Of a stretch of 64,000 nt of DNA, positions 1-49,316 are shown piece by piece. Position numbers and translations under genes: made by a program. Location: contig CAYXYF010000001.1 of the NCBI GenBank assembly GCA_964469265.1, forward strand, positions 138,766 through 202,765. Reading direction: 5' to 3'. Each line of letters begins with the position of its first letter. Position 1 is the first letter of the stretch. The DNA comes from an uncultured Bdellovibrionales bacterium. Its GTDB lineage: Bacteria > Bdellovibrionota > Bdellovibrionia > Bdellovibrionales > JAEYZS01. The notes beneath the pieces are model-generated. The model did no database searches. It saw only the letters and a list, made by a program, of their open reading frames with translations, and was not told the DNA's origin.

Positions 1-553
1 CCATGGCAAAATCAATATTTGCCTCAAGGTGCGCTAACACCCAAGTGGTTTTACTCTGAATTTCTTTAATTCTTTCGCTGAGCTCGCCTTTTAGTTGTCT
101 TAAAGAACTCTCAGCTGCCCGCTTTGTTTCACTCTGAATAAGAGTAAGGATGCTTTCCGCTTGCAGAAGATCAATTCGTCCTGACATAAAGGCCCTGAAC
201 GTAAACTCGCCCCTTTCGGCCAACCTACAACCTGCCATAATTAAGTTTTGTATGATTTCTTCAGAAATCACGGGGCTCCCGTGACAGGAGATCTCTACTG
301 TCTCATCTCCCGTAAATGACTTTCCTTGTTTAAAGTAAGTCATTAAAACTTCATCAATATTTTTTGAATTATCAAGAGTCCTCAAGTTCGTGTAATAAGC
401 GCGGTGGGACTCCACAGATTCAGGAAGGTCGGCAAGCTTACGACAATACGTCAGCGCCTTTTGACCGCTCACTCTGATGACTGAGATTCCCCCATGTCCT
501 GAGGGCGTCGCTACGGCGCAAATTGTATCGTCGACTTGTCTATAGTTATACAT
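1..553 (-). CDS. mnmE: tRNA modification GTPase MnmE (TrmE), N-terminal part; the gene runs off the left edge
   Basis: Not in the ORF track because there is no stop in the window. Manual minus-strand translation from the ATG at 553 gives MYNYRQVDDTICAVATPSGHGGISVIRVSGQKAL...CHGSPV..., the conserved MnmE N-terminal domain pattern. It sits in the canonical position after yidC-jag and overlaps the jag stop by 8 nt. Confidence 0.85.
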   Translation of the reverse strand, partial: MYNYRQVDDTICAVATPSGHGGISVIRVSGQKALTYCRKLADLPESVESHRAYYTNLRTLDNSKNIDEVLMTYFKQGKSFTGDETVEISCHGSPVISEEIIQNLIMAGCRLAERGEFTFRAFMSGRIDLLQAESILTLIQSETKRAAESSLRQLKGELSERIKEIQSKTTWVLAHLEANIDFAM

Positions 554-1085
554 TTGCTCTTTTTGAACTCTCGGGTCTATCCCCTTTGGAAGGATAGATT
601 TTAATTTTTTTAAAGTGGCCTTCGCCGACAGAGCGGCTCTTTACTCGACCATCTTCCGCTAAGTACTGATGGATCACTTTTCTATCCTTCGGCGCAAGAG
701 CACGGAAGTACACAGACTTGTTTTTATCTAAAGCAATTTTCTTTAATTTGTCCGCAAGCTTTATTAGCTCTTCGCTTGCCTCTTTTCTGTAACCATTAGA
801 ATCGCACACGACGTTTATTTTTTCGGTTGGAAGTTGGTGTTGCAAAACACGCTTTAAATAAAGTTGAAAAGCATCTAAGAGCTGGCCTTCTTTATCCACT
901 AGTTCCTTTTGATCATTTCCGAAAATTTCTACTTCGATGTTTTCTTCATCTTTAGACGTAAGATCATACGAAAGATCGAAGTTTGCATGACCAAAAATTC
1001 CGTCCAAAGTTTCTTCGATAATTTGGATTGCAGTTTCACTTGGCTGGCTTTTCTTTCCACCAAATATCTTATTTAAAATTCCCAT
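546..1085 (-). CDS. jag: Jag/KhpB RNA-binding protein (Jag_N, KH-like, R3H)
   Basis: 179 aa with an R-x-x-x-H (RKVIHQYL) R3H-like C-terminus. Conserved yidC-jag-mnmE synteny. Confidence 0.8.
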   Translation of the reverse strand: MGILNKIFGGKKSQPSETAIQIIEETLDGIFGHANFDLSYDLTSKDEENIEVEIFGNDQKELVDKEGQLLDAFQLYLKRVLQHQLPTEKINVVCDSNGYRKEASEELIKLADKLKKIALDKNKSVYFRALAPKDRKVIHQYLAEDGRVKSRSVGEGHFKKIKIYPSKGDRPESSKRANV

Positions 1086-1115
1086 CTTCTTCTCCTCCTA
1101 CAGAGACATTATTTT

Positions 1116-2726
1116 CTAGTTCAGTTTCGTAACTACGCCTACTTGCTCGCCCGCGCTGGATTTGTCTTTCATGATCAGATATTGCTGTATAATCCCAAAC
1201 AGAGTGCTTACGAATATATACAAAGTAAGCCCGCTTGGAAGCGAAATCATCATTAGAGAAAAAATCACAGGCATAATTTGCATAACTTTTGCCTGAGCTG
1301 GATCCATCGTCGTTGGAGTAATTTTTTGTTGAATAAACATAGTAAGGCCCATCAATACTGGCAGAACGTAAAAGGGGTCTTTAAGGCTCAAATCCTTAAT
1401 CCATAACATAAAAGGAGCTTGATAAAGCTCAATACTCTGAGCCAACACATTATATAAGGCGATAAAAATCGGAAGCTGCAATAACATAGGCAAGCATCCA
1501 CCGATAGGGTTTACCTTCTCCCTTTTCATTAATGCCATTGTCTCAAGCTGAAGCTGTCTTGGATCCTCTTTATATCTCTCTTTGAGAGATTTTAGTAATG
1601 GCTGAATGACTTGCATCTTCTTCATTGAACGATAAGAAGTAATGTTCAGAGGCAACAAAATCATTCTAATCAGAAGAGTCACAATGATAATGGCTACACC
1701 ATAGTTTCCTACAAGCGAGTAAAGGAACTTTAAGAGAAGTAAAATTGGCTTTGCAATGACCGAGAAGAATCCAAAATCAATGATCTCTCCAAGGCGACTA
1801 TCAACTTGTTGGAGCAGTTTTAATTCTTTTGGTCCTATAAAAGTTTTTGAAGAAAAACTCTTAACCGCACCGCCAGCTTGTACATACTTTAAAGAACCAA
1901 CAGCAACACTTCTATCTAAGTCCACTCGAGCAGAAAAACTTGGCGCAAGATCAGACTCATCGATGATGGCTGTCGTAAAATAATGTTTTCCTATGGACGC
2001 AATTGAAACATTACGAAATTCGTCATCAAATATTTTTGAATCTTCTGGATCAATTCGAATGACTTCGGAGGAGCCTGAGTGAGATACAAAAACAACTTCA
2101 TAATCAAACGACGGCATCAAAAACGACGAAGATTTATCCTTAATGATTTCTTCTGTTAACATCAGTTCCACAATAGCTGGCACTTCAGACATCTCTGTAT
2201 TTGAAACCACAGTATGTTTTACAGGATCCACTGTAAGTGTTCTTGTAACGGTCATTGAGCCTGCTTGCCCAACTCCCCTAAATTCTGTATCGCTAATCTT
2301 TTCCAAACTAAAGTGCACAGAATTGCCGTTAATTTTTAATTCCCCGAGGTAATTTTCCTTACCGCCATGAGATAACAAAACTTCTGTTCCATCTCTTTCG
2401 CGAAACTGATTGAGTTTTATATTTCGCAGTCCCATACCACGAGATGAAATTTCAAAAGTAAAAGGCTCACTCTGGAAGCCAATAACTTCTTCAACCCCAT
2501 TTGCAGATGCACTCTCAGAGGCTTCCGTAGGGGCCGTCGTTTCTTGATGAGTCGGAATAGATTCAAGGCCCTTTTCAACAACTTTTTGAATTTGTTCTGG
2601 CGAAGTCACTGGATATTTTTTTGAAAGGTAATACTGCCATCCAAAGATACATCCAAACACCAAAAGAATTGCAAATAACGTTCTTGGGTCAAAGAAATTA
2701 TCATTTTTATTGTGCGGTAGATTCAT
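1116..2726 (-). CDS. yidC: membrane protein insertase YidC
   Basis: 536 aa with an N-terminal TM, a large periplasmic domain and a C-terminal multi-TM insertase core (...KKMQVIQPLLKSLKERYKEDPRQLQLETMALMKREKVNPIGGCLPMLLQLPIFIALY...). Synteny with rnpA and yidD. Confidence 0.92.
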   Translation of the reverse strand: MNLPHNKNDNFFDPRTLFAILLVFGCIFGWQYYLSKKYPVTSPEQIQKVVEKGLESIPTHQETTAPTEASESASANGVEEVIGFQSEPFTFEISSRGMGLRNIKLNQFRERDGTEVLLSHGGKENYLGELKINGNSVHFSLEKISDTEFRGVGQAGSMTVTRTLTVDPVKHTVVSNTEMSEVPAIVELMLTEEIIKDKSSSFLMPSFDYEVVFVSHSGSSEVIRIDPEDSKIFDDEFRNVSIASIGKHYFTTAIIDESDLAPSFSARVDLDRSVAVGSLKYVQAGGAVKSFSSKTFIGPKELKLLQQVDSRLGEIIDFGFFSVIAKPILLLLKFLYSLVGNYGVAIIIVTLLIRMILLPLNITSYRSMKKMQVIQPLLKSLKERYKEDPRQLQLETMALMKREKVNPIGGCLPMLLQLPIFIALYNVLAQSIELYQAPFMLWIKDLSLKDPFYVLPVLMGLTMFIQQKITPTTMDPAQAKVMQIMPVIFSLMMISLPSGLTLYIFVSTLFGIIQQYLIMKDKSSAGEQVGVVTKLN

Positions 2727-2743
2727 GTTGTCTTTTACCTCTG

Positions 2744-3055
2744 TTAGTTCGTGTTTTTACACTCTGGAACAGGATCAAAACCCTTTGCCCCAAACGGTCT
2801 ACATTTAAGTAGACGTTTCGTCGTTAATATAAATGCGGTTTTAAAATTATACTGATTAAAAGCTTGCGTCGCATAAGCGGAACACGTCGGGTGAAACCGG
2901 CACGCGCCCCCTAGAATTGGTGATAAAACAATCTGATAGGACCTTACCAATGTCAGCGCGATAATATTTAGAAACTTATCGAACTTTTTTAACGGCTGAG
3001 TCGAGTTCGTCTTTGAACTCTTTGAATGTAAGTTTTCGAAAATAACTGGCATCAC
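2744..3055 (-). CDS. yidD: membrane protein insertion efficiency factor YidD
   Basis: Conserved motif LSPILGGACRFHPTCSAYATQA. The start is uncertain: the ORF overlaps the rnpA 3' end by 80 nt and there is no internal ATG. Confidence 0.8.
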   Translation of the reverse strand: MMPVIFENLHSKSSKTNSTQPLKKFDKFLNIIALTLVRSYQIVLSPILGGACRFHPTCSAYATQAFNQYNFKTAFILTTKRLLKCRPFGAKGFDPVPECKNTN

Positions 3056-3326
3056 TATTTGCTCTAATAATAACGTTTACATCAAAGTGTTTTTCAGGGT
3101 GAAAACGCAAGTTTCTGAAATATTCCCTACACCATCTTTTAAGTCGATTTCTAAGGACTGAGCCTCCCACTTTTTTGGGAATGATCCAGCCGTATCGATT
3201 TGTGGATTCGGAGTTTTGTAGGTAGTTGAGAATTAACCAACTATTTGCGTATATTCTTTTCCCTCTTTTTTTGAGAGTTTCAAAATCACTTTTGCGACGT
3301 AAGGTTGTTATCTTCTTATTTGCCAC
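2976..3326 (-). CDS. rnpA: ribonuclease P protein component
   Basis: 116-aa basic protein with ...[15 protein letters not shown].... Lies immediately downstream of rpmH. Confidence 0.85.
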
Positions 3327-3465
3327 CAGCAGAAACCGTTAGTTTTTTTCTGCCCTTTGCTCTTCTTTTTGCGATAACAGTTTGGCCGCCACGAGTTGCC
3401 ATACGTGCTCTGAAACCATGAGTTGCTTTACGACGTTTTTTGCTTGGTTGATACGTCCTTTTCAT
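3316..3465 (-). CDS. rpmH: 50S ribosomal protein L34
   Basis: The internal ATG at 3465 gives [27 protein letters not shown]..., with GGAGG a few nt upstream (3472-3478 region on the minus strand). The 87-aa ORF-track version is an upstream extension. Confidence 0.95.
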
Positions 3466-3698
3466 TTCCTGTTCCTCCGTTTGAAGTGTAGTCGAAATGT
3501 ATACAATACCTATTCGAAATATATAAGGATTTTTTAACTTCCCAATATCTAAATAAAGGGCAGATAAATCATGACGCATCCCTGCCTGTCAAGATGTTGA
3601 AGTTTTATGCATCAATACCATTGATCATACGAGAAATTATTGCTACATCCACCTATCTTGTAATAAACCCTTTTCTAGTATTTGCAGGGGGCAAAATC

Positions 3699-5102
3699 TT
3701 GGAATCTCACATTTGGGACTCAGTAAAAAAGAATATTAAAATCAAGAATCCAGACAATGCTTACCTAAAGACATGGTTTGATCCCATTGAACTTCTTGAT
3801 ACTGAAGAGAGCCATAAGGGCACTGTGTTCAAACTGGGTGTCCCAACGGATTTCCATAAGTATTGGATATCTGAGAACTTTTTAGACCGTATTTGCCAAG
3901 AAATTTCATCCGTAGTTCAAAAACCTTTTGAAATCGAGCTCATTGTTTCACCAGAGTTAGATAATTCTGAAGCTGCGCCTACGGAGCCCTCGCCAGCGGC
4001 AGCTATCCATCCAAAAGCTGCAGCAGAAGCTCAAGCAGAATTAAGCTACTCAAGCCCTGCAAAATCTCTAAGACAGGTGCTTAATGCTGAATATACTTTT
4101 TCCACGTTTGTTGTCGGAAGAAATAACGAGTTTGCCCATGCGGCTTGTTTTAACGTCGCAAAAAATCCAGGCGGCGGTTACAACCCACTTTTTATTTGCG
4201 GTCCTTCAGGCATGGGTAAAACGCACTTGCTCAATGCTGTTGGTAACCACATTCAAGATAGTTTTCCTCAACTTAAAATTCGCTACGTTTCTACGGAAAC
4301 TTTTTTAAATGAGTTTGTCTCTGGAATTCGTCGTGGGGACATGCCAAAACTTCGAAAAAAATATCGCGATGATTGCGATGTTCTCTTGCTTGATGACATT
4401 CAAGTTCTAGGGCGAGGAGAAGCTTTTCAAGAAGAGTTTTTCCATACTCTTAATGCATTTTTTGATCGCGGCCGACAAGTTGTGGTCGCTAGTGATCGCA
4501 TGCCTCGAGAAATCACAGGTCTTGAAGATCGCATTCGAACCCGTTTGGAATGGGGTCTTATTGCAGATATTAAGATGCCGGATGTGGAAACACGAGTGGC
4601 TATCCTTAAATACAAGGCTGAAAAAAAGGGCCTTCTCGTGCCTGACGATGTGGCAAACTACATAGCTCGTATTTCAAAAAGATCCATTCGAGAACTTGAG
4701 GGCAACCTCAATAAAGTCAAAATGTTCACTGAATTAAGAGGGTTACCTATTAGCCTTGATTTGGCTAAGCATGTTTTGGTTAACCATTCATCAGAATCTC
4801 AGCAGCTGACTGTTGAGGATATTCAAAAAATGGTAAGTGACCACTTTCAAATTAAAATCTCTGATCTTAAATCGACCAACCGTTCAAAGCCCATTGTCGT
4901 TGCAAGGCAAGTTGCCATGTATTTGGTCAAAACATATTTAGAGAAATCCTTAGTTGATATTGGTAGAGCTTTCGGAAATCGCGATCACACAACTGTTATC
5001 AGCGCTTTGCGTCGGGTCGACGAACTACAGGAGAAAGATTCAGATTTACATAAGGATATCGAAGATTTAAGAAGGAAGATCCACAATACCACAGGGGTGT
5101 GA
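3699..5102 (+). CDS. dnaA: chromosomal replication initiator protein DnaA
   Basis: Walker A GPSGMGKTHLL, DDIQ box, and the C-terminal DNA-binding helix region ...VARQVAMYL...GRAFGNRDHTTVISA. I favour the TTG start at 3699 (AGGGGG 8-13 nt upstream; the protein then begins MESHIWDSVKK...). The ORF-track ATG at 3594 adds a hydrophobic, non-DnaA-like 35 aa. Confidence 0.93.
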   Translation: MESHIWDSVKKNIKIKNPDNAYLKTWFDPIELLDTEESHKGTVFKLGVPTDFHKYWISENFLDRICQEISSVVQKPFEIELIVSPELDNSEAAPTEPSPAAAIHPKAAAEAQAELSYSSPAKSLRQVLNAEYTFSTFVVGRNNEFAHAACFNVAKNPGGGYNPLFICGPSGMGKTHLLNAVGNHIQDSFPQLKIRYVSTETFLNEFVSGIRRGDMPKLRKKYRDDCDVLLLDDIQVLGRGEAFQEEFFHTLNAFFDRGRQVVVASDRMPREITGLEDRIRTRLEWGLIADIKMPDVETRVAILKYKAEKKGLLVPDDVANYIARISKRSIRELEGNLNKVKMFTELRGLPISLDLAKHVLVNHSSESQQLTVEDIQKMVSDHFQIKISDLKSTNRSKPIVVARQVAMYLVKTYLEKSLVDIGRAFGNRDHTTVISALRRVDELQEKDSDLHKDIEDLRRKIHNTTGV

Positions 5103-5335
5103 ATGTGGACTGTGGATAAGCGATGTGGGAAACAAGTGGGTTGGGTGTGGAACCAATCTTGTCCCCAAAATGATGCAAGGAGCGCTGTTTATTATTGATA
5201 AGTTTTTCCACACCAAATATGTAGTATTTCCAGGTATTTGAATCGTAATATCGGTTATCAACGGACCTACTACTACTACTGTATTTTTATATAGATATAT
5301 AAATAGTTATAAGAGACAAATTTTAAGGAAAAACA
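5077..5335. other. candidate chromosomal replication origin (oriC): DnaA-box cluster plus AT-rich unwinding region in the dnaA-dnaN spacer
   Basis: Perfect TGTGGATAA at 5111-5119. One-mismatch TTTTCCACA at 5204-5212. Weaker TGTGG-core boxes at 5104, 5124 and 5146, plus AGATCCACA at 5077-5085 and TTATCAACG at 5255-5263. (TAC)4 at 5268-5280 is followed by a ~90% AT stretch at 5281-5325 (GTATTTTTATATAGATATATAAATAGTTATAAG). Confidence 0.6.
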
Positions 5336-5337
5336 AG

Positions 5338-6465
5338 ATGGAATTAAAAATCAAACGAAGTGATCTTTTAGACCTTATCGGCAAGACTCAAAATATCGTT
5401 GAGAAGAGAAACACAATGCCTATTTTGGTAAATGTTCTCTTAGAAGCAAAAGATAATGTTTTAAAAGTATATGCAACAGATCTTGAAGTGAGCCTAACTG
5501 ATGAAACTTCTTGCAAAGTCACTTCATCTGGAAAAGTAGCAGTTGATGCAAAACAACTTTTTCAGATTGTTAAAGAGCTTAACGAAGACGGAATTATTCA
5601 GCTTAAGAGCAAAGAGAATAACTGGTTAATTATTCAGCAAGGAAAAGCTTTATTTAATTTAGTGGGTAAGAACCCAGAAGAATATCCCATCTTCCCGACT
5701 TACACTTCAGACAATTTTGTAAAAATTAAATCTTCAACTCTCAAAGAAATGATTGAGAAAACAATTTACAGCGTTTCAACGGATGAAACTCGATACCACT
5801 TGAACGGCGTTTTTTTTGAACAGATTAAAAACGGTAATTCTTTTCAGTACCGAATGGTAGCAACAGACGGTCACAGATTGTCATTGGTAGATCGTGAAAC
5901 TGGATTCGAAGTTGGAAGCGAAGTGAAGTTTGATCGTGGAGTTATTATTCCGCGTAAAGGTTTATCTGAAATTTCTAAGATACTTGAAACTTCAATGGAA
6001 GATGTTGAGTTCACTGTTGAAGGCCCGCAATTAATTTTAAAAAATAATTCAGCAGTGTTAATGATTCGTTTAATTGAAGGAAAATATCCAAACTTCTTAC
6101 AACTAATTCCAAAATCTTTATCTCGTCATATCGTAGCTTCACGTCACGAGCTCATTCAGAGTTTAAAAAGAGTTTCTTTGTTATCCAACAAGAAATCTAA
6201 AGGCATTACTGTTACCCTTTCTCAAGGAACAATGTCCATCACGAGCAATAACCCTGAATTAGGTGACGCTAAAGAAGAGATTCAAGTTAACTATGACGGT
6301 GAAGAAATTAAAATTGGTTTTAATGCTAGATACCTATTGGATATTCTAAATAGCTTCAATGAAGACGAAGTTGAAATTGAACTTAATGATCAACTTTCTC
6401 CAGGACTATTCAGACCAAAGCAAGACAACAAGTATACTTGTATCGTCATGCCTATGAGAATTTAA
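5338..6465 (+). CDS. dnaN: DNA polymerase III beta sliding clamp
   Basis: 375 aa with three-domain clamp length and pattern (MELKIKRSDLL...TDGHRL...). dnaA-dnaN-recF synteny. Confidence 0.93.
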   Translation: MELKIKRSDLLDLIGKTQNIVEKRNTMPILVNVLLEAKDNVLKVYATDLEVSLTDETSCKVTSSGKVAVDAKQLFQIVKELNEDGIIQLKSKENNWLIIQQGKALFNLVGKNPEEYPIFPTYTSDNFVKIKSSTLKEMIEKTIYSVSTDETRYHLNGVFFEQIKNGNSFQYRMVATDGHRLSLVDRETGFEVGSEVKFDRGVIIPRKGLSEISKILETSMEDVEFTVEGPQLILKNNSAVLMIRLIEGKYPNFLQLIPKSLSRHIVASRHELIQSLKRVSLLSNKKSKGITVTLSQGTMSITSNNPELGDAKEEIQVNYDGEEIKIGFNARYLLDILNSFNEDEVEIELNDQLSPGLFRPKQDNKYTCIVMPMRI

Positions 6466-6509
6466 GTTTTCATAGCGGCCTGAGTATTTCTTAATAGGTA
6501 AAACTTTAA

Positions 6510-7628
6510 GTGCGCTTAAAAAATTTAAGTCTTTATAACTTTAGAAATATCGCACAGGCTAATGTTGAATTTAAGTCGCATGTAAATATTTTTAAAGGCC
6601 TTAACGGACAAGGAAAAACCAACTTTGTTGAGTCCATTTATCTTCTCTCAAAGGGTAAGAGCTTTAGAACTTTTGATATTGGTCATTTAATAAAATCTGG
6701 TTCTGCTGAAGGAACCAGAGCCTTCGGTCAATTTTTATCAGACAACACTTCAAACGAAATTGAATTAAAGATTCTCAATCATTCCAAAACACACAGCTTA
6801 AATTCTAAAAAAACAAACTCATTAAAAACCTTTAAAGCTTTTCCAGTCATTTTGTTTTCACCAGAGAGTTTATCAGCTGTGAAGGAAGGTCCTGAGGTTC
6901 GGCGCAATCTCATAGATGAAACTTTAGTGCTAGAAGACGAAGCCCACATTAAAACCTTACAAAATTTTAGGAAGATTTTAAAATCAAAAAACCTCGTTTT
7001 AAAACAATTCAAGCAAGGAAAAATCAACTCCTCTCAGGCAAGAGATATTCTCTCTGGTCTTAATCCTGTTTTTTTAGAACATTCCGTTGAGCTTATGAAC
7101 CTGCGTACGAAAATTATCAAAAATATCCACCTCACTTTTCAACAATCCTTAGCGGAAATCACAGGCAAAAATGTGGATATACGTGTGAATTATGTGCCTA
7201 ACTTTTCAGAGGGTAAAAGTGTCGATTTTGCTAATACATTGCGTAATAAAATCGAGCAAAATATCGCCATAGAGATGGCTTCTGGACTGAGTTTATACGG
7301 TCCTCACAAAGATGATATTGTTTTTGAGTATAACGGGTCAGACAGTCGGTTTTATTGCTCTCAAGGCCAACAGAGAGCCCTTATTTTAGCGTTTAAATTC
7401 AGCCAGATCTTGTATCATAAGGCTATTTATGGTTATTATCCTATATTAATTCTCGACGACGTTTTGTCGGAATTTGATAGGGAAAAAAGATCATTTCTCA
7501 TACAGTTCTTAAACAAAAACGAAGCGCAGACATTCTTAACGACAACTGACGTGGACGACTCACTTGAGCCTTCAAATCTGGATATGTCTGTGTTGAATGT
7601 GGATCAGGGTAGGCTTCTTGAACTGTAA
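6510..7628 (+). CDS. recF: DNA replication and repair protein RecF
   Basis: GTG start. Walker A GLNGQGKTN, SMC-like signature ...CSQGQQRAL..., Walker B ILILDDV. Confidence 0.9.
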   Translation: MRLKNLSLYNFRNIAQANVEFKSHVNIFKGLNGQGKTNFVESIYLLSKGKSFRTFDIGHLIKSGSAEGTRAFGQFLSDNTSNEIELKILNHSKTHSLNSKKTNSLKTFKAFPVILFSPESLSAVKEGPEVRRNLIDETLVLEDEAHIKTLQNFRKILKSKNLVLKQFKQGKINSSQARDILSGLNPVFLEHSVELMNLRTKIIKNIHLTFQQSLAEITGKNVDIRVNYVPNFSEGKSVDFANTLRNKIEQNIAIEMASGLSLYGPHKDDIVFEYNGSDSRFYCSQGQQRALILAFKFSQILYHKAIYGYYPILILDDVLSEFDREKRSFLIQFLNKNEAQTFLTTTDVDDSLEPSNLDMSVLNVDQGRLLEL

Positions 7629-7654
7629 AAATATAGATCTATCAAAAGATTTGA

Positions 7655-10090
<2,436 letters not shown>

Positions 10091-10099
10091 GGCGTAGAG

Positions 10100-12580
10100 A
10101 TGGAACCAGTAGAAAATAAAAATGTAATTAGTGTCGATATTAATAAAGAAATGAAGGAAGCATACCTTCAGTATTCAATGAGCGTGATCGTCGGACGTGC
10201 TCTTCCTGATGCACGAGACGGATTAAAGCCAGTTCATCGTCGGATTCTTTTTGCGATGAAAGAGATGGGAAACTACCACAATAAACCCTACAAAAAATCA
10301 GCAAGAGTTGTAGGTGATGTTATTGGTAAGTACCACCCTCACGGCGATACAGCAGTTTACGATACAGCAGTTCGTATGGCTCAAGACTTTTCATTAAGAT
10401 ACCCGCTGGTTGATGGGCAAGGAAACTTTGGTTCCATCGACGGAGATAGCCCAGCTGCGATGAGGTATACGGAAATCCGTATGACTAAACTTGCAGAAGA
10501 GCTTTTAAATGATATTGAAAAAGAAACGGTTCAGTTTGGTCCTAACTATGATGACTCATTAGAGATCCCGCATGTTCTTCCAGCTAAATTTCCTAATCTA
10601 CTTGTCAACGGAAGTTCAGGAATCGCAGTTGGGATGGCAACAAATATTCCCCCGCATAATTTATCTGAAGTCATTGATGCCTGTATTGAGATTATTAATA
10701 ACCCAGAATGTACTTTTGCGGATCTTTTAAAACATGTGAAAGGGCCTGACTTCCCTACGGCGGGAACAATCGCTGGTCGTTCGGGAATCATTGACGCTTA
10801 TAAAACTGGCCGCGGTGGAATTACATTAAAAGCAGTTTGTGAAATTGAAACTTTCGGCAACGAGCGTGAAAGAATTATTGTTAAAGAACTTCCGTACCAA
10901 GTGAATAAGGCAAAGCTCATCGAGAACATAGCCGATCTTGTAAAAGATAAAAAAATCGAAGGAATTTCAGATATCCGTGATGAATCCTCTCGTGAAGGAA
11001 TGAGAGTTGTTATTGATATTAAGCGTGGCGATTCTGGTAATGTTGTTTTAAATCGGCTTTATAAATTTACACAACTTGAAACCCGCTTTGGAATTATTCT
11101 GTTGGCTCTTGATAAAGGTAGTCGTCCAAGGATTTTCAATCTCAAAGAAGCATTGGAAGCATTTGTTCAACACAGAAGAGAAGTTGTTACTAGACGTTGC
11201 ATCTATGACTTAAAGAAAGCGGAAGCACGCATTCATATCTTGCACGGGTTAAAAACAGCTCTTGATCATGTCGATGCAGTAGTTGAAACCATCAGAAAGA
11301 GCCCAGACGGCCAAACTGCAAAAGCTAACCTTATCGCAAAATTTACACTCTCGGAAGTTCAAGCACAAGCCATCTTGGATATGCGTTTACAAAGACTCAC
11401 AGGTCTTGAGCGTCAAAAAATTCTTGATGAAATTGCTGAGATCGAAAAACAAATTACCTGGTTAAAGATGGTTCTTGGCGACGTCCAAGAAATTTATAAA
11501 ATCATTGTTCAAGAGTTAGAAGAAATTAAAAAGAACTATGGTGATGAGAGACGAACACAAATTTCTCAAGAAGAATCTGAAGCTCTTGAAGATGAAGATC
11601 TCATTCAAAAAGAAAACGTGATGGTAACAATCACTCACAGCGGTTACATTAAGCGCATTCCGATTGAGACCTACCGCGCACAACGACGTGGTGGGAAAGG
11701 TTTAAAAGGCATTGAAACCCGAGAAGAAGATTTTGTTACCAATATTTTTACAGCAAATACTCACACTACGCTTTTGGTCTTTACCGATAAGGGAAAAGTT
11801 TACTGGTGTAAGGTCTTTAAACTTCCTGCGGGAACTAGAACTTCTAAAGGAAAAGCCATTGCAAACGTAGTTCAATTAGCTTCCAATGAAAAAGTCCAAG
11901 CTATCTTACCCGTTGAAGAGTTTTCTTCTGATCAGTTTGTAGTCCTGGTTACGAAAAACGGAATTATTAAAAAGACATCCCTTGATAATTTCTCTAATCC
12001 AAGACCATCAGGAATTATTGCATTAACGACGGACCTCGATGATTCCTTGGTTTGTGCACAGTTGACTTCAGGACGCGATGATATCTTTGTTGCAACAAGA
12101 AAAGGTATGTCTATTCGTTTCAGCGAGGAATCTGCTCGACCGATGGGAAGAACTGCTCGCGGTGTAAAAGCTGTGACACTAGGTAAAGAAGACCATGTGA
12201 TAGGTTGTGAAATCATAACTCCAGACTGTAAAAAAACAGTCTTGATGGTTACTGGTAAAGGTTATGGCAAACGAACCGAGACAAGTGAATATCGCTCACA
12301 GGGCCGCGGTGGCGTAGGGATCATTACTCAGAAAGTAACAGATCGAGTTGGAGATGTGATCTCAACAATCTTGGTTAGCGATGATGAAGATGTCATGCTT
12401 ATGACAGATAAGGGACAAGTTATCCGTATTAACTGCAATAAGATTTCTGTTCTCGGGCGTAACACTCAGGGCGTGAGATTGATTAATGTTAATGAATCTG
12501 AAATTGTCTCAAGTGTAGCGCGAGTTGCGAATGAAGATGAGGGCGATTCAGGTGAATCACCAGCTCCAACTCTTCAGTAG
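10100..12580 (+). CDS. gyrA: DNA gyrase subunit A
   Basis: 826 aa with GKYHPHGD (QRDR region), [10 protein letters not shown] (catalytic Tyr) and a C-terminal beta-pinwheel region. Confidence 0.97.
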
Positions 12581-31825: not shown

Positions 31826-32134
31826 TTACGTTAAAGAACGGACCTTTATTTTATAGCCGTCCATTTTCTTCTTTAGTGTGTTTCTGTTAATTCCTAACAT
31901 TTTAGCGGTCTTAACTTGGTTTCCGCGGTGAACTTTCAAAGCAAGCTCAATAAGAGGCTTCTCTACTTGTTCTAAGACAACGTCATATAGACCATTTAAT
32001 TCAACGGATGTTTCTTGTTGCTCGTCAAATAAGACTTCTAGTTTTGATCTTACAAGCTTTTCTAAACTTACTGATTTTAAATTTGCAACGAATAGGTGAT
32101 TAGGTTGAAAAGCGTCTGTTGTAGTATTCTCCAT
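31826..32134 (-). CDS. Fis-family DNA-binding protein (HTH_8)
   Basis: 102 aa with C-terminal HTH ...GNQVKTAKMLGINRNTLKKKM.... Confidence 0.75.
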   Translation of the reverse strand: MENTTTDAFQPNHLFVANLKSVSLEKLVRSKLEVLFDEQQETSVELNGLYDVVLEQVEKPLIELALKVHRGNQVKTAKMLGINRNTLKKKMDGYKIKVRSLT

Positions 32135-32909: not shown

Positions 32910-35336
32910 ATGTCGAAAATGATTGAAAAATTTCAAAGAGATATTGTCGTTATTTTGTGGTTAGCGGGAAGTGTATTCTTATCCTTAGCCTTGTTTAGTT
33001 ACAATCCAAATGACCCGTCTTTAAATACCACAGGAACGTCTTCCGTCGTTCAAAACCTATGTGGTTATTTTGGTAGTTTCCTATCAGATATCTTTTACCA
33101 AGTTTTTGGGATTAGCGCGTGGGTCTTCGTTTTGGCGGGAATAAGAAAAGCCTACTTTCATCTGAGCCAAAGAAATTCTACTAGAAAGGTCTCAGGTCAT
33201 ATTTCAGTAGTATTTTTTGCGTTGTTTATCGTAACAGCTTCATCTCTTGTGTCTCTTTATTTTTCTGAAACCAAAATCTTTAATAGCACTATCTACGCAA
33301 GTGGCCTTTTAGGCTTATTTGCTACAAAGGGGCTGATCACAGTATTTAATAAAGCTGGTGTTTCAATTATCCTTTGGAGCACGATTTTAGTTCTTACAAT
33401 TTTATACACTGAAAAATCCTTAAAAGAGTTTAAAGATATTCTGTTGCCAGTTTCTTTAAAGCGCTCACTGATCAACTTGAAAGACTCTATGGTCATGTTT
33501 TTTAAAGGTCTCTTTAAAAGTGTAAAAATCCACAAGCCAAAGCGCCCTACCGTAGAATCAAAAACACTAAATGCCCTTGAAGCTAGAATCATCAAAGCAT
33601 CAGAAAAAGAAAGTGATGATGATGAATTTGAAGACGACGAACTAGAAGAGCTTCATGAGCTTGAAGAAATCGCAGAAGAATTAGGAATTGAAGAAGACGA
33701 TGATGATGAGCCCATGGGCGCAGAGGCAGAGAGAAAGCCTCACTTTATCATTCAGAAGATGAATGAAAGAAAGTCTCACATCACTCAAGCGGAACATAAA
33801 AAAATTAAAAGAATAGAAAAATGGGAATTACCAAAACTCTCCATTCTTGAGTCTGCGCCTGCAAAAGGCTTAAAGGTTGATGAAAGAGCAATTAAAGAAA
33901 ACACTTTCTTACTAGAAGACAAACTTTCCCAGTTTTCAGTCAAAGGCCAAGTGGTTGCGGTCAGGCCTGGCCCAGCGGTGACCATGTATGAGTTTAAGCC
34001 GAATGCAGATGTTAAAATTTCTAAGATCACAGAGTTAGCAGATGATATCTCTCTTGCACTAAGTTCTGAATCGGTGCGGATCATAGCGCCCCTGCCTGGC
34101 CGCGATGTGGTTGGCATTGAGAGCGCTAACCCCAATAGAGCACCAGTTTATCTTAAAGAAATCGTTGAAGATAAAACCTTCTGGGATGAAAAAGTCAGGC
34201 TTCCAATTGCGTTGGGTAAAGAAGCTGGCGGTGATCCTAAGACCGTCGATCTTAGAAAGATGCCACATTTACTCGTTGCTGGAACAACGGGCTCAGGGAA
34301 ATCCGTTTTTATTAATTCCTTATTAACGGGCCTACTCTTTAAACATTCGCCAAAAACATTAAAATTAATCTTAGTGGATCCAAAGCAAGTGGACTTGGCA
34401 GCGTTTCATAATGTGCCCCATTTAATAATGCCTCCAATTAAGGAACCCAAAAAAGCAGTTGTTAGCCTGCGTTGGGCAGTTCGAGAAATGGAAAAGCGTT
34501 ATCGTTCGATGTCGAGATTTAAAACCCGAAGCATTGAAGAATTTAATAAAGCTGTATCCGATCTCTCAAAACAACAGGCTTCAGGACATCAAGCTTACAA
34601 CGACGAGCTTGAAGCGCAGAACAGATCAAATGTTGAGGGTTATTACCATAATGAAATACCTTATATTGTTATCATCGTGGAAGAGTTCGGCGATCTTATG
34701 GCCGTGGATAAATCCAATACGGAGCAACTCATTGTTCGGTTGGCGCAAATGGCACGTGCATGCGGAATGCATTTAGTGTTGGCTATGCAGTCCCCTCGTC
34801 GCGATGTCGTAACGGGATTAATTAAAACCAATATTCCTGGGCGCATCAGCTTTAAAGTTGCTAGTAAAACAGATTCTCGAATCATCCTTGACGAAGCTGG
34901 AGCAGAAAGACTACTTGCCCAAGGAGATATGTTGTTCTTGGCTCCAGGTGTTTCTAAGCCGCAAAGACACCATGGAGCGTGGGTCTCAGAACCCGAGATT
35001 CATGCTCTGACCTCGTTTTGGTCTAAACAGTCTGAACCTGATTTTGATCCAGCGGCAATGAAAGTATTGAGCGGCTCTGGCGGCGGATTTGAATTCTCCG
35101 ATGGCTCTTCTGGAACATCCTTTGATGGTGAACCCGAAGAGGGCTCAGATGAAAGATACGATGAGCTTCTGGCTTATGTGTCGGGGCTTAAGGAAGTGAG
35201 CGCTTCTTTGTTGCAAAGAAAGTTCCGTCTGGGTTATCCAAGGGCAGCAAGGATCATTGAGATCTTTGAAAAAGAAGGGGTTGTTGGTCCCTCAAATGGT
35301 AGCAAGCCGCGCCAAGTACTAATCAATAAATTGTAA
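32910..35336 (+). CDS. ftsK: DNA translocase FtsK
   Basis: 808 aa with N-terminal TM helices, an acidic linker, Walker A GTTGSGKSV, and a C-terminal winged-helix gamma domain ...LLQRKFRLGYPRAARII.... Confidence 0.95.
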   Translation: MSKMIEKFQRDIVVILWLAGSVFLSLALFSYNPNDPSLNTTGTSSVVQNLCGYFGSFLSDIFYQVFGISAWVFVLAGIRKAYFHLSQRNSTRKVSGHISVVFFALFIVTASSLVSLYFSETKIFNSTIYASGLLGLFATKGLITVFNKAGVSIILWSTILVLTILYTEKSLKEFKDILLPVSLKRSLINLKDSMVMFFKGLFKSVKIHKPKRPTVESKTLNALEARIIKASEKESDDDEFEDDELEELHELEEIAEELGIEEDDDDEPMGAEAERKPHFIIQKMNERKSHITQAEHKKIKRIEKWELPKLSILESAPAKGLKVDERAIKENTFLLEDKLSQFSVKGQVVAVRPGPAVTMYEFKPNADVKISKITELADDISLALSSESVRIIAPLPGRDVVGIESANPNRAPVYLKEIVEDKTFWDEKVRLPIALGKEAGGDPKTVDLRKMPHLLVAGTTGSGKSVFINSLLTGLLFKHSPKTLKLILVDPKQVDLAAFHNVPHLIMPPIKEPKKAVVSLRWAVREMEKRYRSMSRFKTRSIEEFNKAVSDLSKQQASGHQAYNDELEAQNRSNVEGYYHNEIPYIVIIVEEFGDLMAVDKSNTEQLIVRLAQMARACGMHLVLAMQSPRRDVVTGLIKTNIPGRISFKVASKTDSRIILDEAGAERLLAQGDMLFLAPGVSKPQRHHGAWVSEPEIHALTSFWSKQSEPDFDPAAMKVLSGSGGGFEFSDGSSGTSFDGEPEEGSDERYDELLAYVSGLKEVSASLLQRKFRLGYPRAARIIEIFEKEGVVGPSNGSKPRQVLINKL

Positions 35337-45392: not shown

Positions 45393-46892
45393 ATGAAAGA
45401 ACACGCAACTGCAGAAGAAAACACCTTCAAACACGCCAAGTATACCGCCATTATTAGCGATATCCATCTAACTGAAGCTGAACCCGAGCGTCCGCCTGGC
45501 GATCTGTGGAAGAAATTTAAGCGAAAAGAGTTCTTTTTTGATGATCTCTTAAGAGACTTCTTTGAGCATATCGATGAGCAATCAGGCGATGATGAAGTTG
45601 AGCTTATTTTAAATGGCGATGTGTTTGATTTTGATGCGGTCATGTCTTTCCCAGAGGACGCCCCCTATAAGATCACGTGGCTTGAGCGGACTAGGGGATT
45701 ATTTCCAGAGGAGCAAAAGGCTTCTTATAAAATTCAAAAAATTCTAAGTGAACATCCCATCTTCGTCGAAAGCCTTCGAAAATTTATTCAAAAGCGCAAT
45801 AGAGTGGTTATCACAATCGGGAATCATGATCTTGAGCTTCACTTTCCTCAGGTCCAAAAAGACATTATCAACGCTCTTGAACTCACCGAAGATGAAAAAA
45901 AACGAGTTCGTTTTTGTGAGTGGTTTTATATCAGTAACGGCGACACGCTTGTAGAACATGGGAATCAGTATGATCCCTACTGTGTTTGTCAAAACCCCAT
46001 TCATCCCTTTGTTCAAAAATTTAATCGTATTGAGCTGAGACTACCCTTTGGAGATCTTGCAGGAAGGTATATGACAAACGGCATGGGATTTTTTAATCCC
46101 CATGTTGATTCCAACTTCATTATGAGCTTTAAGGACTACCTTAAATTTTTTACCAAGTACCTTGTTCGGACTCAGCCCTTAATTATGTGGACGTGGTTTT
46201 GGTCCTCGGTGGCGGTGCTCATACAATCTTCTTTGGATCGTCTCCTTCCCGAGCTAAAAGATCCCCTCACAATGGAGGATCGGGTTAATGATATTGCTTA
46301 CAAAGCCAATGCGGAACCGCGTATGGTTAGGGAGCTAAAAGAACTTGCAGTCAACCCTGCGGCAAGTAATCCCATTCGTCTAGCAAGAGAGCTGTGGCTT
46401 GATCGTGCGTTTATTGTGTTGATTGGATTTATTTTTATCTTCCAGATTTTTACGATCATAAAACTTGCCTATGATATTTCATTTTTTTGGATGTTTATCC
46501 CGCTTTTCATTTTAGTTCCGTTTTTTGTTTTCTACGCAAAGTCCATTGATTCAGATGTGGCCGCAGTCAAAGAGCCCAATGAATGGATTTTAAGTGTTTC
46601 TTCAAGGATGACGAATGTTAGAAGAGTTGTTTACGGTCATACCCATATTGCACGACATGAGTTTATAGGAATAGTTGAGCATTTAAATTCGGGCTGCTGG
46701 ACCCCCGCTTTTTTAGATGTGGAATGCACAAAACCATTTGGCAAAAAGACCTATGTTTGGATTGAGCCAGGCCCCCACGGACAACGGGTCGCGCAGTTAA
46801 GAGAGTTTATTCGTGGAGATTCTTATCAAATCAAGGGTGGGAAACGACACATTAAAGACGATGCGCCCACTGTCATTCATGTTAGCTCTTAG
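45393..46892 (+). CDS. calcineurin-like metallophosphoesterase interrupted by a membrane module
   Basis: 499 aa with motifs ISDIHL, NGDVFDF, GNHD, HGNQYD and then GHTH about 220 aa later. The intervening segment has 2-3 hydrophobic helices. Confidence 0.75.
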   Translation: MKEHATAEENTFKHAKYTAIISDIHLTEAEPERPPGDLWKKFKRKEFFFDDLLRDFFEHIDEQSGDDEVELILNGDVFDFDAVMSFPEDAPYKITWLERTRGLFPEEQKASYKIQKILSEHPIFVESLRKFIQKRNRVVITIGNHDLELHFPQVQKDIINALELTEDEKKRVRFCEWFYISNGDTLVEHGNQYDPYCVCQNPIHPFVQKFNRIELRLPFGDLAGRYMTNGMGFFNPHVDSNFIMSFKDYLKFFTKYLVRTQPLIMWTWFWSSVAVLIQSSLDRLLPELKDPLTMEDRVNDIAYKANAEPRMVRELKELAVNPAASNPIRLARELWLDRAFIVLIGFIFIFQIFTIIKLAYDISFFWMFIPLFILVPFFVFYAKSIDSDVAAVKEPNEWILSVSSRMTNVRRVVYGHTHIARHEFIGIVEHLNSGCWTPAFLDVECTKPFGKKTYVWIEPGPHGQRVAQLREFIRGDSYQIKGGKRHIKDDAPTVIHVSS

Positions 46893-47036
46893 CATATACG
46901 CATAGCGACGTTGGCGCGAGGCGCGTCAATTCGACAAATCTTAAGGATTCGTTAAAATTAACTTCAAAACGAATATATTCGAGTATATTTTAGTTTGAAT
47001 TACAAAAAAAGCTCACCAGAGTGTTTTGGAGGACAA

Positions 47037-47231
47037 ATGGCGGACGTATTAGTAGTAACAAGCAAGGTTAAAAAGTATATCAAAGAAAAAGCGACGATGA
47101 ATACTTCTGCAGAGACAGTGGACGTGCTCAGTAAAGCAGTTCAAGCCCTTTGCGATCGCGGAATTGAAAGCGCTAAAAATGACGGAAGAAAAACTGTCAT
47201 GGCTCGTGATATCAATATTGATCATTTATAG
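47037..47231 (+). CDS. histone-fold DNA-binding protein (bacterial histone, Bdellovibrio Bd0055/HBb-like)
   Basis: ATG at 47037 with GGAGG at 47027-47031. The 64-aa product MADVLVVTSKVKKYIKEKATMNTSAETVDVLSKAVQALCDRGIESAKNDGRKTVMARDINIDHL is colinear with archaeal HMfB, including the GRKT(V/I)xxxDI loop-2/alpha-3 signature. Confidence 0.85.
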   Translation: MADVLVVTSKVKKYIKEKATMNTSAETVDVLSKAVQALCDRGIESAKNDGRKTVMARDINIDHL

Positions 47232-47257: not shown

Positions 47258-47287
47258 AAAAAAGGCGAGGTCTTCCTCGCCTTTTTT
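47258..47287. terminator. bidirectional intrinsic terminator shared by the histone gene and ligA
   Basis: A6-GGCGAGG-tctt-CCTCGCC-T6. The T-run overlaps the ligA stop codon. Confidence 0.85.
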
Positions 47288-49316
47288 ATTTTATCAACTT
47301 TTGGAAATCATCCCAGGATAAAATCTTTACACCAAGCTCTTGGGCTTTATCAAGTTTTGAGCCCGCAGCCTCACCAGCCAAAACATAGCTTGTCTTTTTG
47401 CTCACGGATCCGCTCACTTTCCCTTTATGGGATTCAATCATAACCTTTATATTATCTCGCTCCATGGGGAGTGTGCCTGTAATTACAAAAGTAAATCCCT
47501 CTAGCTTGTTGGAAGAGACTTTATTTTCCTCTTCCTGAATTTCAACGCCGTTTTGAATTATTCTTTGGATTTCTTTTTTAAAGGACGCTTGTGAAATACT
47601 ATCGATAATCGACTGAGCAACTTTTGGTCCGACGCCCTCAACCGTAACGAGCTCATCAAACTGAGCACCTAAAAATCTCTCAAGAGTACCAAAGTAATTA
47701 GAAATAAGCTTTGCTGTTTGTTCTCCGACAAACCGTATCCCTAGAGAATAAATAAAGCGGGAGAGTGAAGGGTTTCTGCTGCTGTCAATGCTATCAATAA
47801 TATTTTGCGCAGATTTCTCTCCTTGTCTTTCAAGACCAAGAATGTGATCGAGTTCAATTTTAAAAAGATCGGAGTAAGAATGGACAAGCCCTGTATCCAC
47901 AAGTTTATTGATGAGTTTATCTCCGACCTTTTCAATGTTCATAGCCCTCTTTGAGACGAAGTGCTTAAGAGATTCTTTTATCTTGGCATCGCAAACGGGG
48001 TTGGGACATCTTAATACGACTTCGCCCTCGGCTTTAACGGCCTCTGACTGACAAACAGGACAGAGGTTCGGAATCTTGAAGGGTTTTGAATTTTTGCCTC
48101 GCTTGTCTTTTAGAACTTGGACAACCTCAGGGATAACATCTCCAGCCCTGTGAACAATCACATAATCCCCTTCTCGAACGTCCTTTCTGTCAATTTCATC
48201 TTGGTTGTGTAAAGTGGCATTGGTAACGGTAACGCCACCAACTAAAACAGGAGTCATGACGGCAACGGGAGTGAGCGCTCCTGTTCTTCCCACTTGCACC
48301 GTAATTTTTTCGATTTTCGTTTCAGCCTGCTCGGGTTCAAACTTTGCGGCGTTTGCCCATCTTGGAGATCTTGCAATAAAGCCTAACTCTTCTTGAAGGC
48401 TGAGACTATTGACCTTTACAACAATGCCATCAATATCAAATGGTAACCCTTTTCTCACTTTGTGAATATAGTGATAGTAGTCTACGGCCTCTTGTGAGTT
48501 CTTCGCTAAAGTTAAATATTTATCGCTAACTGTAGGGACCCCCCACTCTCTAAATTCTTGAATAACTTCTTTTTGTGTTGAAACTTTTAAGCCTTCGGAG
48601 TCGCCCAGTGCATAGCCATAAAATCGTAAGGGTCGTGAGGCTGCAATCTTTGGGTCCAATTGTCGAATCGTCCCTGCAGACGCGTTTCGCGGATTTGCGA
48701 ATGGAACTTCACCAGCTTCTTGTTGGGCCTCGTTTAGCTTTAAAAAATCATTCTTAAGCATTAAGACTTCGCCACGGATTTCAACAAGCTTTGGCGCTTT
48801 TTTTGTTTTAAGCCTCATTGGAATAGATTTGATAGTTCGGATATTCGATAGCACATTTTCACCAGTAATGCCGTCACCTCTTGTCAGCGCGCCAGTTAAA
48901 ATACCGTCTTCGTAAATTAATTCAATGGCAAGGCCATCAAGCTTGAGCTCACAGAAGTACTCAATATCGCTTTCGCTCGCTAAAACTTTTTTAGCTCGCT
49001 TATCAAAGGCCAAGATGTCTTCGGGTGAATAACTGTTTTGTAAAGAGAGCATGGGCTTTCGGTGTTCCACTTTTTGAAATCGCGAAAGAGGCTGTGCGCC
49101 TACGCGCTGTGTAGGAGAAAGCTCCGATATGATCTCAGGATATGCTTCTTCGAGATTTTTTAGCTCTTCAAATAATTTGTCATATTCGCGGTCTGATATC
49201 GTCGGTCGGTCTAATACGTGGTAACTGGTGTCGTGAATTTGGATTTCTCCGATAAGCTCTTCGTAGCGGCGCTTGATCTCTTTGGTTTTATCTGAAGGTG
49301 GTTGTACCTTTTTCAT
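47286..49316 (-). CDS. ligA: NAD-dependent DNA ligase LigA
   Basis: 676 aa with adenylation motif CELKLDGLA, a Cys4 zinc finger (CPVC...C..C), HhH repeats and a C-terminal BRCT. Confidence 0.96.
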   Translation of the reverse strand: MKKVQPPSDKTKEIKRRYEELIGEIQIHDTSYHVLDRPTISDREYDKLFEELKNLEEAYPEIISELSPTQRVGAQPLSRFQKVEHRKPMLSLQNSYSPEDILAFDKRAKKVLASESDIEYFCELKLDGLAIELIYEDGILTGALTRGDGITGENVLSNIRTIKSIPMRLKTKKAPKLVEIRGEVLMLKNDFLKLNEAQQEAGEVPFANPRNASAGTIRQLDPKIAASRPLRFYGYALGDSEGLKVSTQKEVIQEFREWGVPTVSDKYLTLAKNSQEAVDYYHYIHKVRKGLPFDIDGIVVKVNSLSLQEELGFIARSPRWANAAKFEPEQAETKIEKITVQVGRTGALTPVAVMTPVLVGGVTVTNATLHNQDEIDRKDVREGDYVIVHRAGDVIPEVVQVLKDKRGKNSKPFKIPNLCPVCQSEAVKAEGEVVLRCPNPVCDAKIKESLKHFVSKRAMNIEKVGDKLINKLVDTGLVHSYSDLFKIELDHILGLERQGEKSAQNIIDSIDSSRNPSLSRFIYSLGIRFVGEQTAKLISNYFGTLERFLGAQFDELVTVEGVGPKVAQSIIDSISQASFKKEIQRIIQNGVEIQEEENKVSSNKLEGFTFVITGTLPMERDNIKVMIESHKGKVSGSVSKKTSYVLAGEAAGSKLDKAQELGVKILSWDDFQKLIK

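Follow-up and report, generated by a model that had tools for sequence, protein, structure and literature searches.

The closest described relative of the protein studied here is HBb (Bd0055; UniProt Q6MRM1), the histone of Bdellovibrio bacteriovorus HD100. Crystal structures of its apo and DNA-bound forms have been published, together with proteomics, essentiality, DAP-seq and RNA-seq data (PMC10627809, PMC11317129, bioRxiv 10.1101/2025.09.24.678257). Homologs of Bd0055 were found in 67% of Bdellovibrionota genomes (Hocher et al., PMC10627809), and a class of 'bacterial dimer' alpha-3 histones has been drawn by sequence clustering (Schwab et al. 2024). Abundance, localization to the nucleoid, essentiality and an expression peak in the late growth phase have been reported for B. 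bacteriovorus only (PMC10627809, PMC11317129, bioRxiv 10.1101/2025.09.24.678257), and the in vivo function of HBb is still called unknown (bioRxiv 10.1101/2025.09.24.678257).

HBb contacts DNA through T8, S9, K10, K12, K16, N22, T23, S24, A25, K52, T53 and R57 (Hu et al. 2024, PMC11317129). Its RD clamp is formed by R51 and D58 and reinforced by D49, and its dimer core comprises V11, L31, I35, L38 and I59 (PMC11317129). How the protein acts on DNA in vivo is disputed: one study describes dimers that assemble end-on into a filament on straight DNA (PMC10627809), and according to the other each dimer bends DNA by about 84 degrees (PMC11317129). Unlike the archaeal HMf histones, HBb has no sprocket arginine and forms neither a four-helix-bundle tetramer nor a hypernucleosome (PMC10627809). 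It cannot tetramerize and hence does not wrap DNA; the substitutions S45F/A48H/I61L restore wrapping (Hocher et al., PMC10627809). In contrast to these strict dimers, the face-to-face (FtF) histones, HLp of Leptospira perolatii (PDB 9QT0-2) and HTkC of Thermococcus kodakarensis (PDB 9F2C), form tetramers that wrap about 60 bp (PMC12701072).

RESULTS

A histone gene between a metallophosphoesterase gene and ligA

The window, which is the whole 64-kb stretch of DNA analyzed, also carries jag, yidC, dnaA, dnaN, recF, gyrB and gyrA. The features relevant to this work are the following.

31826 to 32134, minus strand: Fis-family ORF (the strand is a small correction to the original prediction)
45393 to 46892, plus strand: calcineurin-like metallophosphoesterase, 499 aa, upstream neighbor (Pfam PF00149)
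46906 to 46933, plus strand: GC-rich imperfect hairpin just 3' of the metallophosphoesterase stop codon (61-nt fold, -15.9 kcal/mol)
46963 to 46991, plus strand: putative core promoter, proposed from conservation (-35 TTCAAA at 46963 to 46968, 17-nt spacer, -10 TATTTT at 46986 to 46991)
46970 to 46981, no strand: perfect AT-rich 12-bp palindrome CGAATATATTCG in the putative spacer, one copy in the 64-kb window
47028 to 47032, plus strand: Shine-Dalgarno sequence GGAGG, 4 nt 5' of the ATG
47037 to 47231, plus strand: histone gene, ATG at 47037, 64 aa and TAG stop codon (translation, PDB match, synteny, dN/dS)
47258 to 47287, no strand: intrinsic terminator acting in both directions, common to the histone gene and convergent ligA (13- to 14-bp stem, T-runs on both strands)
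47286 to 49316, minus strand: LigA, NAD-dependent DNA ligase, convergent downstream neighbor (Pfam DNA_ligase_aden, OB, ZBD, HHH and BRCT)

Translation of the window from the ATG at 47037 yields exactly the 64-residue peptide of the original prediction, followed by TAG, and the GGAGG named there as the ribosome-binding site is in place. The TTG at 46995, which the prediction had set aside as an upstream extension, is where the mechanical list of ORFs begins the frame, giving 78 aa. The public record with the identical sequence (P0002) likewise uses a start giving 78 aa, and neither the record nor its cluster bears a name. We take the ATG at 47037 to be the true start because the alignment of orthologs begins at residue 1 (80 of 80 loci, the best 80 of at least 273 relatives), an in-frame start codon upstream of the ATG is missing in 48 of 79 orthologs, a GGAG, GAGG or AGGA core is kept within 20 nt upstream of the ATG in 78 of 79, and HBb itself has 64 residues. 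The confident annotation thus gives the public record a name and trims a start that is 14 codons too long.

The gene lies on the same strand as dnaA, 43.4 kb from it, and is transcribed away from it, a position that fits an abundant and probably essential nucleoid protein. The ortholog is found at about 48 to 52 kb in seven complete Bdellovibrio chromosomes, those of B. bacteriovorus included, and the bd0055 locus shares both the gene neighborhood and the distance from dnaA.

A hidden Markov model (HMM) built from 110 orthologs and run against all 1014 six-frame segments of the window found this gene alone, the next-best segment having an E-value of 0.66; a divergent paralog resembling Bd3044 could escape such a scan. 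An ORF of 64 residues at positions 2 to 196 of the related locus L089, considered as a second histone copy, turned out to encode the C-terminal part of a truncated metallophosphoesterase frame. Neither Rfam nor tRNA scans detected a structured RNA anywhere in the 64-kb window.

The protein is closely related to HBb

In a phmmer search of the PDB, HBb (8fvx_A/8cmp_A) was matched with an E-value of 1.7e-27 over residues 1 to 64 of both proteins; the HBb entries recovered were 8FVX, 8FW7, 8CMP, 9EZZ and 9F0E. The two proteins, each of 64 aa, align without gaps and share 51 of 64 residues (80%), which bears out HBb as the nearest characterized relative over the full length. Far weaker matches were obtained for HTkC (1.3e-06), HLp (2.8e-06) and HmvA (4e-04), and the archaeal histones HMfA, HMfB and HPhA followed at 0.25 to 0.77. 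With the profile of the 110 orthologs as the query, the E-value for HBb (8fvx) was 1.7e-40, and HMk, the Asgard histone HHoB and HMfA/B came within 1e-04 to 0.08.

The original prediction had pointed to the Pfam family CBFD_NFYB_HMF (PF00808). This was the best family, but its score of 19.3 bits (E = 0.0014, residues 11 to 60) stayed just below the gathering score of 21.4. The family was matched at an E-value of 0.01 or better by all 110 orthologs (best, 2.3e-05), and the PDB entries of HBb bear the title 'CBFD_NFYB_HMF domain-containing protein'. The NCBIfam model NF043032 (archaea_histone) gave 24.1 bits (E = 3.5e-05), far under its cut-off of 50 bits; judged by sequence, the protein is related to the archaeal nucleosomal histones and stands outside that family. 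DUF1931 (PF09123) scored 17.4 bits, below its cut-off of 21.8, and only positions 17 to 55 of the 138 in the profile were aligned. Because the Pfam and NCBIfam scores are below threshold, the assignment rests mainly on homology to the crystallized HBb. At the level of sequence, the protein has every feature that defines the 'bacterial dimer' alpha-3 histones (PMC11390915).

The family is large. A protein set clustered at 90% identity contained 1099 relatives at an E-value of 0.001 or better, and most of the best 120 of these have exactly 64 aa. At 50% identity there were 561 clusters under the same E-value limit, doublets and fusions among them. JGI often annotates the members as 'histone H3/H4', whereas at NCBI they are hypothetical proteins.

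DNA-contacting and dimer residues are conserved

All 12 DNA-contacting residues of HBb are identical in the window protein, as are the RD clamp R51-D58 and D49, and S45 and I61 are shared as well. Four of the five residues of the dimer core are as in HBb, and the fifth is a conservative exchange, I35V. The S9-K10 motif, the alpha-1 lysines K10, K12 and K16, and the RKT...D motif are all present. Across the 110 orthologs each of these functional positions is invariant or conserved to at least 90%, save A25 and position 35 (I, V or M). The protein differs from HBb by 13 substitutions (D3, Y14, A19, T20, V28, V35, Q36, A37, D40, R41, I43, N48 and N60). All 13 fall into columns that vary within the family in the alignment of 110 orthologs, so the sequence is not unusual for a member of this family.

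The three sites whose mutation restores wrapping in HBb are S45, N48 and I61 in the window protein. Column 48 holds alanine in 64, asparagine in 19 and serine in 17 of the 110 orthologs, and histidine in none. The comparison with HMfB, for which a sequence identical to PDB 1A7W was used, agrees with the colinearity claimed earlier: AGRKTIKAEDI of HMfB aligns with DGRKTVMARDI. HMfA and HMfB (PDB 1A7W, 1B67 and 5T5K) share with the window protein the order helix-loop-helix-loop-helix and the GRKT...D-I signature, and contact with DNA through paired L1-L2 loops (PMC10627809) is common to both types. The proteins differ in that identity to HMfB is only 25%, alpha-2 of the window protein is shorter by 4 residues and its C terminus by 4 to 5, and it has N48 in the place of H49, lacking both the histidine of the four-helix bundle and the three-turn alpha-3.

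An AF2 model of the monomer, computed with the alignment of 110 sequences, had a pLDDT of 66 and a pTM of 0.41. This moderate confidence is as expected for a monomer that is one half of an obligate dimer. By DSSP, the model has helices at residues 2 to 19 and 25 to 49 and then a turn of three residues, 56 to 58. A Foldseek search of the PDB with this model returned HBb structures as the five best matches (TM 0.67 to 0.71), followed by HLp, HTkC, HPhA, HMfA and eukaryotic H3/H4.

The structural claims of the original prediction stand up well in these analyses. A histone-fold singlet with the GRKT...D signature is borne out by the alignment and the structure matches. The proposed loss of the dimer-dimer surface through truncation of alpha-3 agrees with the one-turn helix 56 to 58, the shorter C terminus and N48 in the place of H49. 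Outcomes that would have spoken against the fold did not occur, as significant matches to histones in the PDB were obtained and the top Foldseek matches of the monomer model are histones.

Synteny and selection identify a positional ortholog of bd0055

We scanned one genome per GTDB species for relatives, found at least 273 and analyzed the best 80, which are 77 to 98% identical to the window protein. By name, nearly all of the 80 belong to Bdellovibrionales, Bdellovibrionaceae, Pseudobdellovibrionaceae, Bdellovibrionota or Oligoflexia; four are labelled just Proteobacteria, Pseudomonadota or Deltaproteobacteria. Of these best 80 of at least 273 loci, 64 have a metallophosphoesterase gene immediately upstream of the histone gene, 72 have convergent ligA downstream, and 59 have gatC-gatA beyond ligA. 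Most of the best 80 Bdellovibrionales loci thus share the arrangement of metallophosphoesterase, histone, convergent ligA and gatCAB genes. Within the same set, the histone (77 to 98% identity) is better conserved than its neighbors LigA (46 to 78%) and the phosphoesterase (49 to 83%).

Purifying selection on the histone gene is extreme. In the comparison with the closest genome (L001), pS was 0.66 and pN 0.020, giving a dN/dS of about 0.012; the medians across 78 orthologs were 0.80 for pS, meaning that synonymous sites are saturated, and 0.16 for pN. The GC content of the gene is 0.38 to 0.40, the same as in its flanks, and that of the host is about 41%, compared with 50.5% in B. bacteriovorus (PMC11317129). 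Horizontal acquisition was rejected in view of the GC content equal to that of the flanks and of the order-wide synteny. The gene was vertically inherited, is orthologous to bd0055 by position and belongs, as an ordinary member, to a known family.

The gene ends at a strong terminator and probably has its own promoter

The strong bidirectional terminator noted earlier is clearly present. The hairpin at 47258 to 47287 has a G+C-rich stem, T-runs on both strands and a folding energy of -22.2 kcal/mol (z = -7.06), and none of 200 shuffled sequences was as stable. Two of its nucleotides lie in the ligA stop codon, and it therefore serves both convergent genes. In the three related loci L001 to L003, hairpins of different sequence occupy the same place, and, by a crude test, 34 of 78 orthologous loci have a hairpin with a T-run.

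Upstream, 144 nt separate the metallophosphoesterase gene from the histone gene. An upstream palindrome had also been predicted, and there are in fact two, the GC-rich hairpin at 46906 to 46933 and the AT-rich palindrome at 46970 to 46981. The former was rejected as a terminator (z = -1.46, without a T-run), so that read-through from the metallophosphoesterase gene into the histone gene is possible. A separate transcript of the histone gene is likely, and the earlier description of the gene as monocistronic and highly and autonomously expressed would follow from the promoter-like conservation described below.

In 12 of 13 close relatives a conserved block, TTTAGCTT[CT]AAAACGAATATATTCGAGTATATTTTA, stands out between flanks that cannot be aligned. 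Within it, the same 12 of 13 have TT[CTG]A[AT][AC], exactly 17 nt and TA[TA][TCG][TC]T, and T1, A2 and T6 of the -10 element do not change in any variant. The counterpart in the window is TTCAAA-17-TATTTT, which we regard as the most likely core promoter; transcription would probably start from this sigma-70-type promoter of the gene's own near position 46998, leaving a 5' untranslated region of about 38 nt. With 8 of 12 consensus positions the element is below the threshold of a consensus scan, which prefers the overlapping candidates TTAAAA-16-TATATT (46952 to 46979) and TCGACA-16-TAAAAT (46931 to 46958). The arrangement TT[CTG]AAA-17-TAT[TC]TT with a palindromic spacer differs from a second conserved motif, TTGTCA-N10-15-TATG[CTA][AC]A, which 28 of 78 related loci carry, those of the B. 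bacteriovorus genomes among them.

The palindrome CGAATATATTCG in the putative spacer is identical in six related loci (L001, L002, L081, L082, L084 and L086). In L003, L083, L087/L088 and L089 one or two changes destroy its symmetry, and the palindrome is absent from the loci of the B. bacteriovorus clade. Because the variants in remoter relatives break the symmetry, CGAATATATTCG may act as an operator or just be a spacer under constraint. It was discarded as a regulon motif within the window: allowing up to two mismatches, the window holds 3 copies (2.7 expected), of which 1 is perfect. To our knowledge, it fits none of the consensus sequences for LexA (TTACN3GTAA), CtrA, Fis, IHF and the DnaA box.

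DISCUSSION

Our analysis identifies the gene at 47037 to 47231 as encoding a histone of the HBb/Bd0055 type. With a probability of about 0.9, we consider its product to be a handshake dimer that bends DNA without sequence specificity, coats it where local occupancy is high, and builds no wrapping core. The analysis itself establishes the homology, the conserved residues, a compatible fold, the synteny, the purifying selection and the terminator; the dimer state, binding and bending of DNA, abundance, essentiality and the identity of the promoter follow by inference. The original prediction was correct about the gene, but it described the physiology of such histones as largely unexplored, and this does not hold: crystal structures, proteomics, localization, a failed deletion, DAP-seq and life-cycle RNA-seq are all available for HBb. 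Family, fold, DNA contacts, abundance, essentiality and the spread among Bdellovibrionota have been published since 2023, and the survey of Bdellovibrionota genomes by Hocher et al. makes the present finding a known one. The only possibly new item is the lineage-specific conserved promoter block with CGAATATATTCG.

How would the protein work? By orthology, we hypothesize that two chains form a handshake homodimer with antiparallel alpha-2 helices, packed through V11, L31, V35, L38 and I59, and that loop 2 is fixed by the R51-D58 clamp with D49 as reinforcement. Such a dimer would have no sequence preference and would contact the phosphate backbone across minor grooves through N22, T23, S24, K52, T53 and R57 of loops 1 and 2 and, in addition, through T8, S9, K10, K12 and K16 at the start of alpha-1. 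Because alpha-3 is a single turn and the tetramer residues are absent, the dimers should not build a wrapping core. The most likely function is that of an abundant, sequence-nonspecific histone-fold dimer that bends or densely coats DNA; genome-wide, bending in the manner of HU, by about 84 degrees for each dimer, the value reported for HBb, is the most likely mode, and dense end-on coating of straight DNA may occur where local occupancy is very high. The likeness to HU and IHF would lie in the proposed mechanism only, that of a small, abundant, nonspecific bending dimer, as fold and ancestry are unrelated. The gene would be transcribed from a probable sigma-70-type promoter of its own up to the strong terminator. 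If the findings in B. bacteriovorus carry over to this organism, as we infer, the protein would be abundant, localized to the nucleoid and essential, and its expression would peak late in growth.

The same protein could instead act in vivo mainly as a nucleohistone filament that sheathes straight DNA, with dimers placed end-on at about one per 2.5 bp, each using one L1-L2 site, and held together by contacts between a basic ridge and an acidic underside and by the exchange of N-terminal tails. A crystal structure of this filament for HBb, FRET measurements in which the DNA ends did not approach each other, and the more than 60 dimers per 147 bp determined by AUC (Hocher et al., PMC10627809) argue for such a filament, as does the sequence of the 110 orthologs, in which every residue of the hydrophobic N-terminal tail V4-L5-V6-V7 and of the C-terminal I61-D62-H63 is invariant or conserved to at least 90%; this is what the tail-exchange contact would need. 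However, the work of Hu et al. revealed a second interface with DNA, T8-S9-K10, along with compaction in TPM comparable to that by HU, ligase-mediated circularization, constrained supercoils and no protection from MNase (PMC11317129), and T8, S9 and K10 are invariant in the 110 orthologs. Since T8-S9-K10 and the N-terminal tail are both at least 90% conserved, conservation does not discriminate between the two modes. Bending is favored genome-wide because full coating of a chromosome of 3 to 4 Mb at one dimer per 2.5 bp would by our estimate take more than 1 million dimers per chromosome, which is implausible across the genome of such a small cell. We therefore regard the filament as unlikely to be the main mode in vivo, while leaving it a sizeable minority chance. 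The protein adds one more natural variant for comparative work on bending versus coating.

Explanations that depart further from HBb fare much worse. An FtF or nucleosome-like histone, whose tetramers would wrap about 60 bp like those of HLp and HTkC, would agree with several shared traits: FtF histones are also singlets with a short alpha-2, a one-turn alpha-3, the RKT motif and RD clamp, and the S-K motif in alpha-1 (PMC12701072). HTkC and HLp, with their similarly truncated alpha-3, are the next-best PDB matches after HBb (E = 1.3e-06 and 2.8e-06; TM about 0.6), and N48, an alanine in HBb, aligns with S52 of HLp, a residue of the tetramer network (PMC12701072). However, identity to these proteins is only about 40% at E-values around 1e-06, and HBb is matched 20 orders of magnitude more strongly than any FtF histone. 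R49, N53 and R55, which act in the HLp tetramer, align with S45, D49 and R51 of the window protein, so that only the arginine of the RD clamp is common to both (PMC12701072). N48 is common in the family (19 of 110 orthologs), and a nucleosome-like assembly is further opposed by the lack of a histidine at the position of H49 in HMfB. We consider this explanation very improbable. If the protein were an NF-Y/CBF-type regulator with sequence specificity, or a DUF1931-type protein that does not bind DNA, it would have no global role in the nucleoid. Such a protein could be suspected from the best Pfam family, which mixes CBF, NF-Y and archaeal histones, and from the weak match to DUF1931 (17.4 bits), but both matches are below threshold. 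DUF1931 proteins are pseudodimeric doublets, with a profile of about 138 positions, that lack the DNA-binding residues (PMC12701072), whereas the window protein is a 64-aa singlet with all HBb contacts, and binding of HBb in DAP-seq was genome-wide and without a motif (PMC11317129); only a very small chance is left for either protein type. The short length of 64 codons and a public record that is nameless and uses another start might suggest a chance or decaying ORF that encodes no functional protein. This is effectively refuted by a dN/dS of about 0.01, by the 77 to 98% of residues kept across the best 80 genomes while synonymous sites are saturated, and by the conserved ribosome-binding site, terminator position and synteny.

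The conserved promoter block allows a more speculative idea, namely that the histone gene acquired its own regulatory switch in this sub-lineage, with CGAATATATTCG as an operator that times synthesis of the histone in the predatory cell cycle. We consider this doubtful. The literature cited here on HBb-type histones reports nothing on the regulation of a bacterial histone gene, and the lineage-specific promoter element is a testable candidate for such regulation. If CGAATATATTCG were an operator, candidate binders would be some repressor, the histone itself or another nucleoid protein. As a side point to this idea, N48, at the former tetramer site, could alter the behavior of dimers toward each other on DNA.

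Replication-origin neighborhood

The window contains the chromosomal replication-origin region (546-12580), in which dnaA is followed, in this order, by dnaN, recF, gyrB, and gyrA.

Features of the replication-origin region
546-1085, minus strand, jag/R3H
1116-2726, minus strand, yidC
2727-3593, 867-bp gap between yidC and dnaA
3594-5102, dnaA

The 867-bp gap is probably the site of oriC. Because the origin region lies within the window, the histone gene is origin-proximal, at 43.4 kb, as it also is in B. bacteriovorus. The whole 64-kb window (1-64000) yielded no tRNA genes and no match to an Rfam family at gathering thresholds.

The Fis-like protein originally noted at 31826-32134 is real: it has 102 amino acids and belongs to the Fis family (Pfam HTH_8; E = 1.4e−15). 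Its gene lies on the minus strand, the plus-strand reading being interrupted by 13 stop codons, and adjoins ftsK.

32910-35336, FtsK

Upstream region and start site of the histone gene

A conserved promoter-like block (46952-46992) lies 5' of the histone gene and is common to 12 of 13 close relatives. Its spacer, invariant in length at 17 nt, holds a perfect 12-bp palindrome, CGAATATATTCG, at 46970-46981. The palindrome may serve as an operator. In contrast, 28 of the 78 related loci, including those of B. bacteriovorus genomes, carry TTGTCA-N10-15-TATG[CTA][AC]A instead of the block found in the window.

The public protein record P0002 is identical to the histone but is given as a 78-amino-acid product starting at TTG 46995, an extension that covers 46995-47036. 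P0003, P0006, and several further cluster representatives likewise exceed 64 amino acids. Comparative evidence shows these longer records to be start-site over-extensions. Among the closest representatives of clusters at 50% identity, many (P0121, P0123, and P0130-P0148) have 120 to 270 amino acids and align with the 64-amino-acid query in two stretches. They are tandem (doublet) or fused HBb-type folds.

Additional open reading frames

Several close relatives have an extra ORF of 101 to 108 amino acids between the histone gene and ligA, which is not present in the window and, among those loci with Pfam data on record, has no Pfam match.

Extra ORF between the histone gene and ligA (coordinates within each related locus)
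L081, 3406-3711
L082, 2958-3263
L084, 3439-3753
L087, 1436-1759

In the window itself, a 58-amino-acid antisense ORF (47049-47225, minus strand) lies wholly inside the histone gene and probably arises only mechanically from the histone coding frame.
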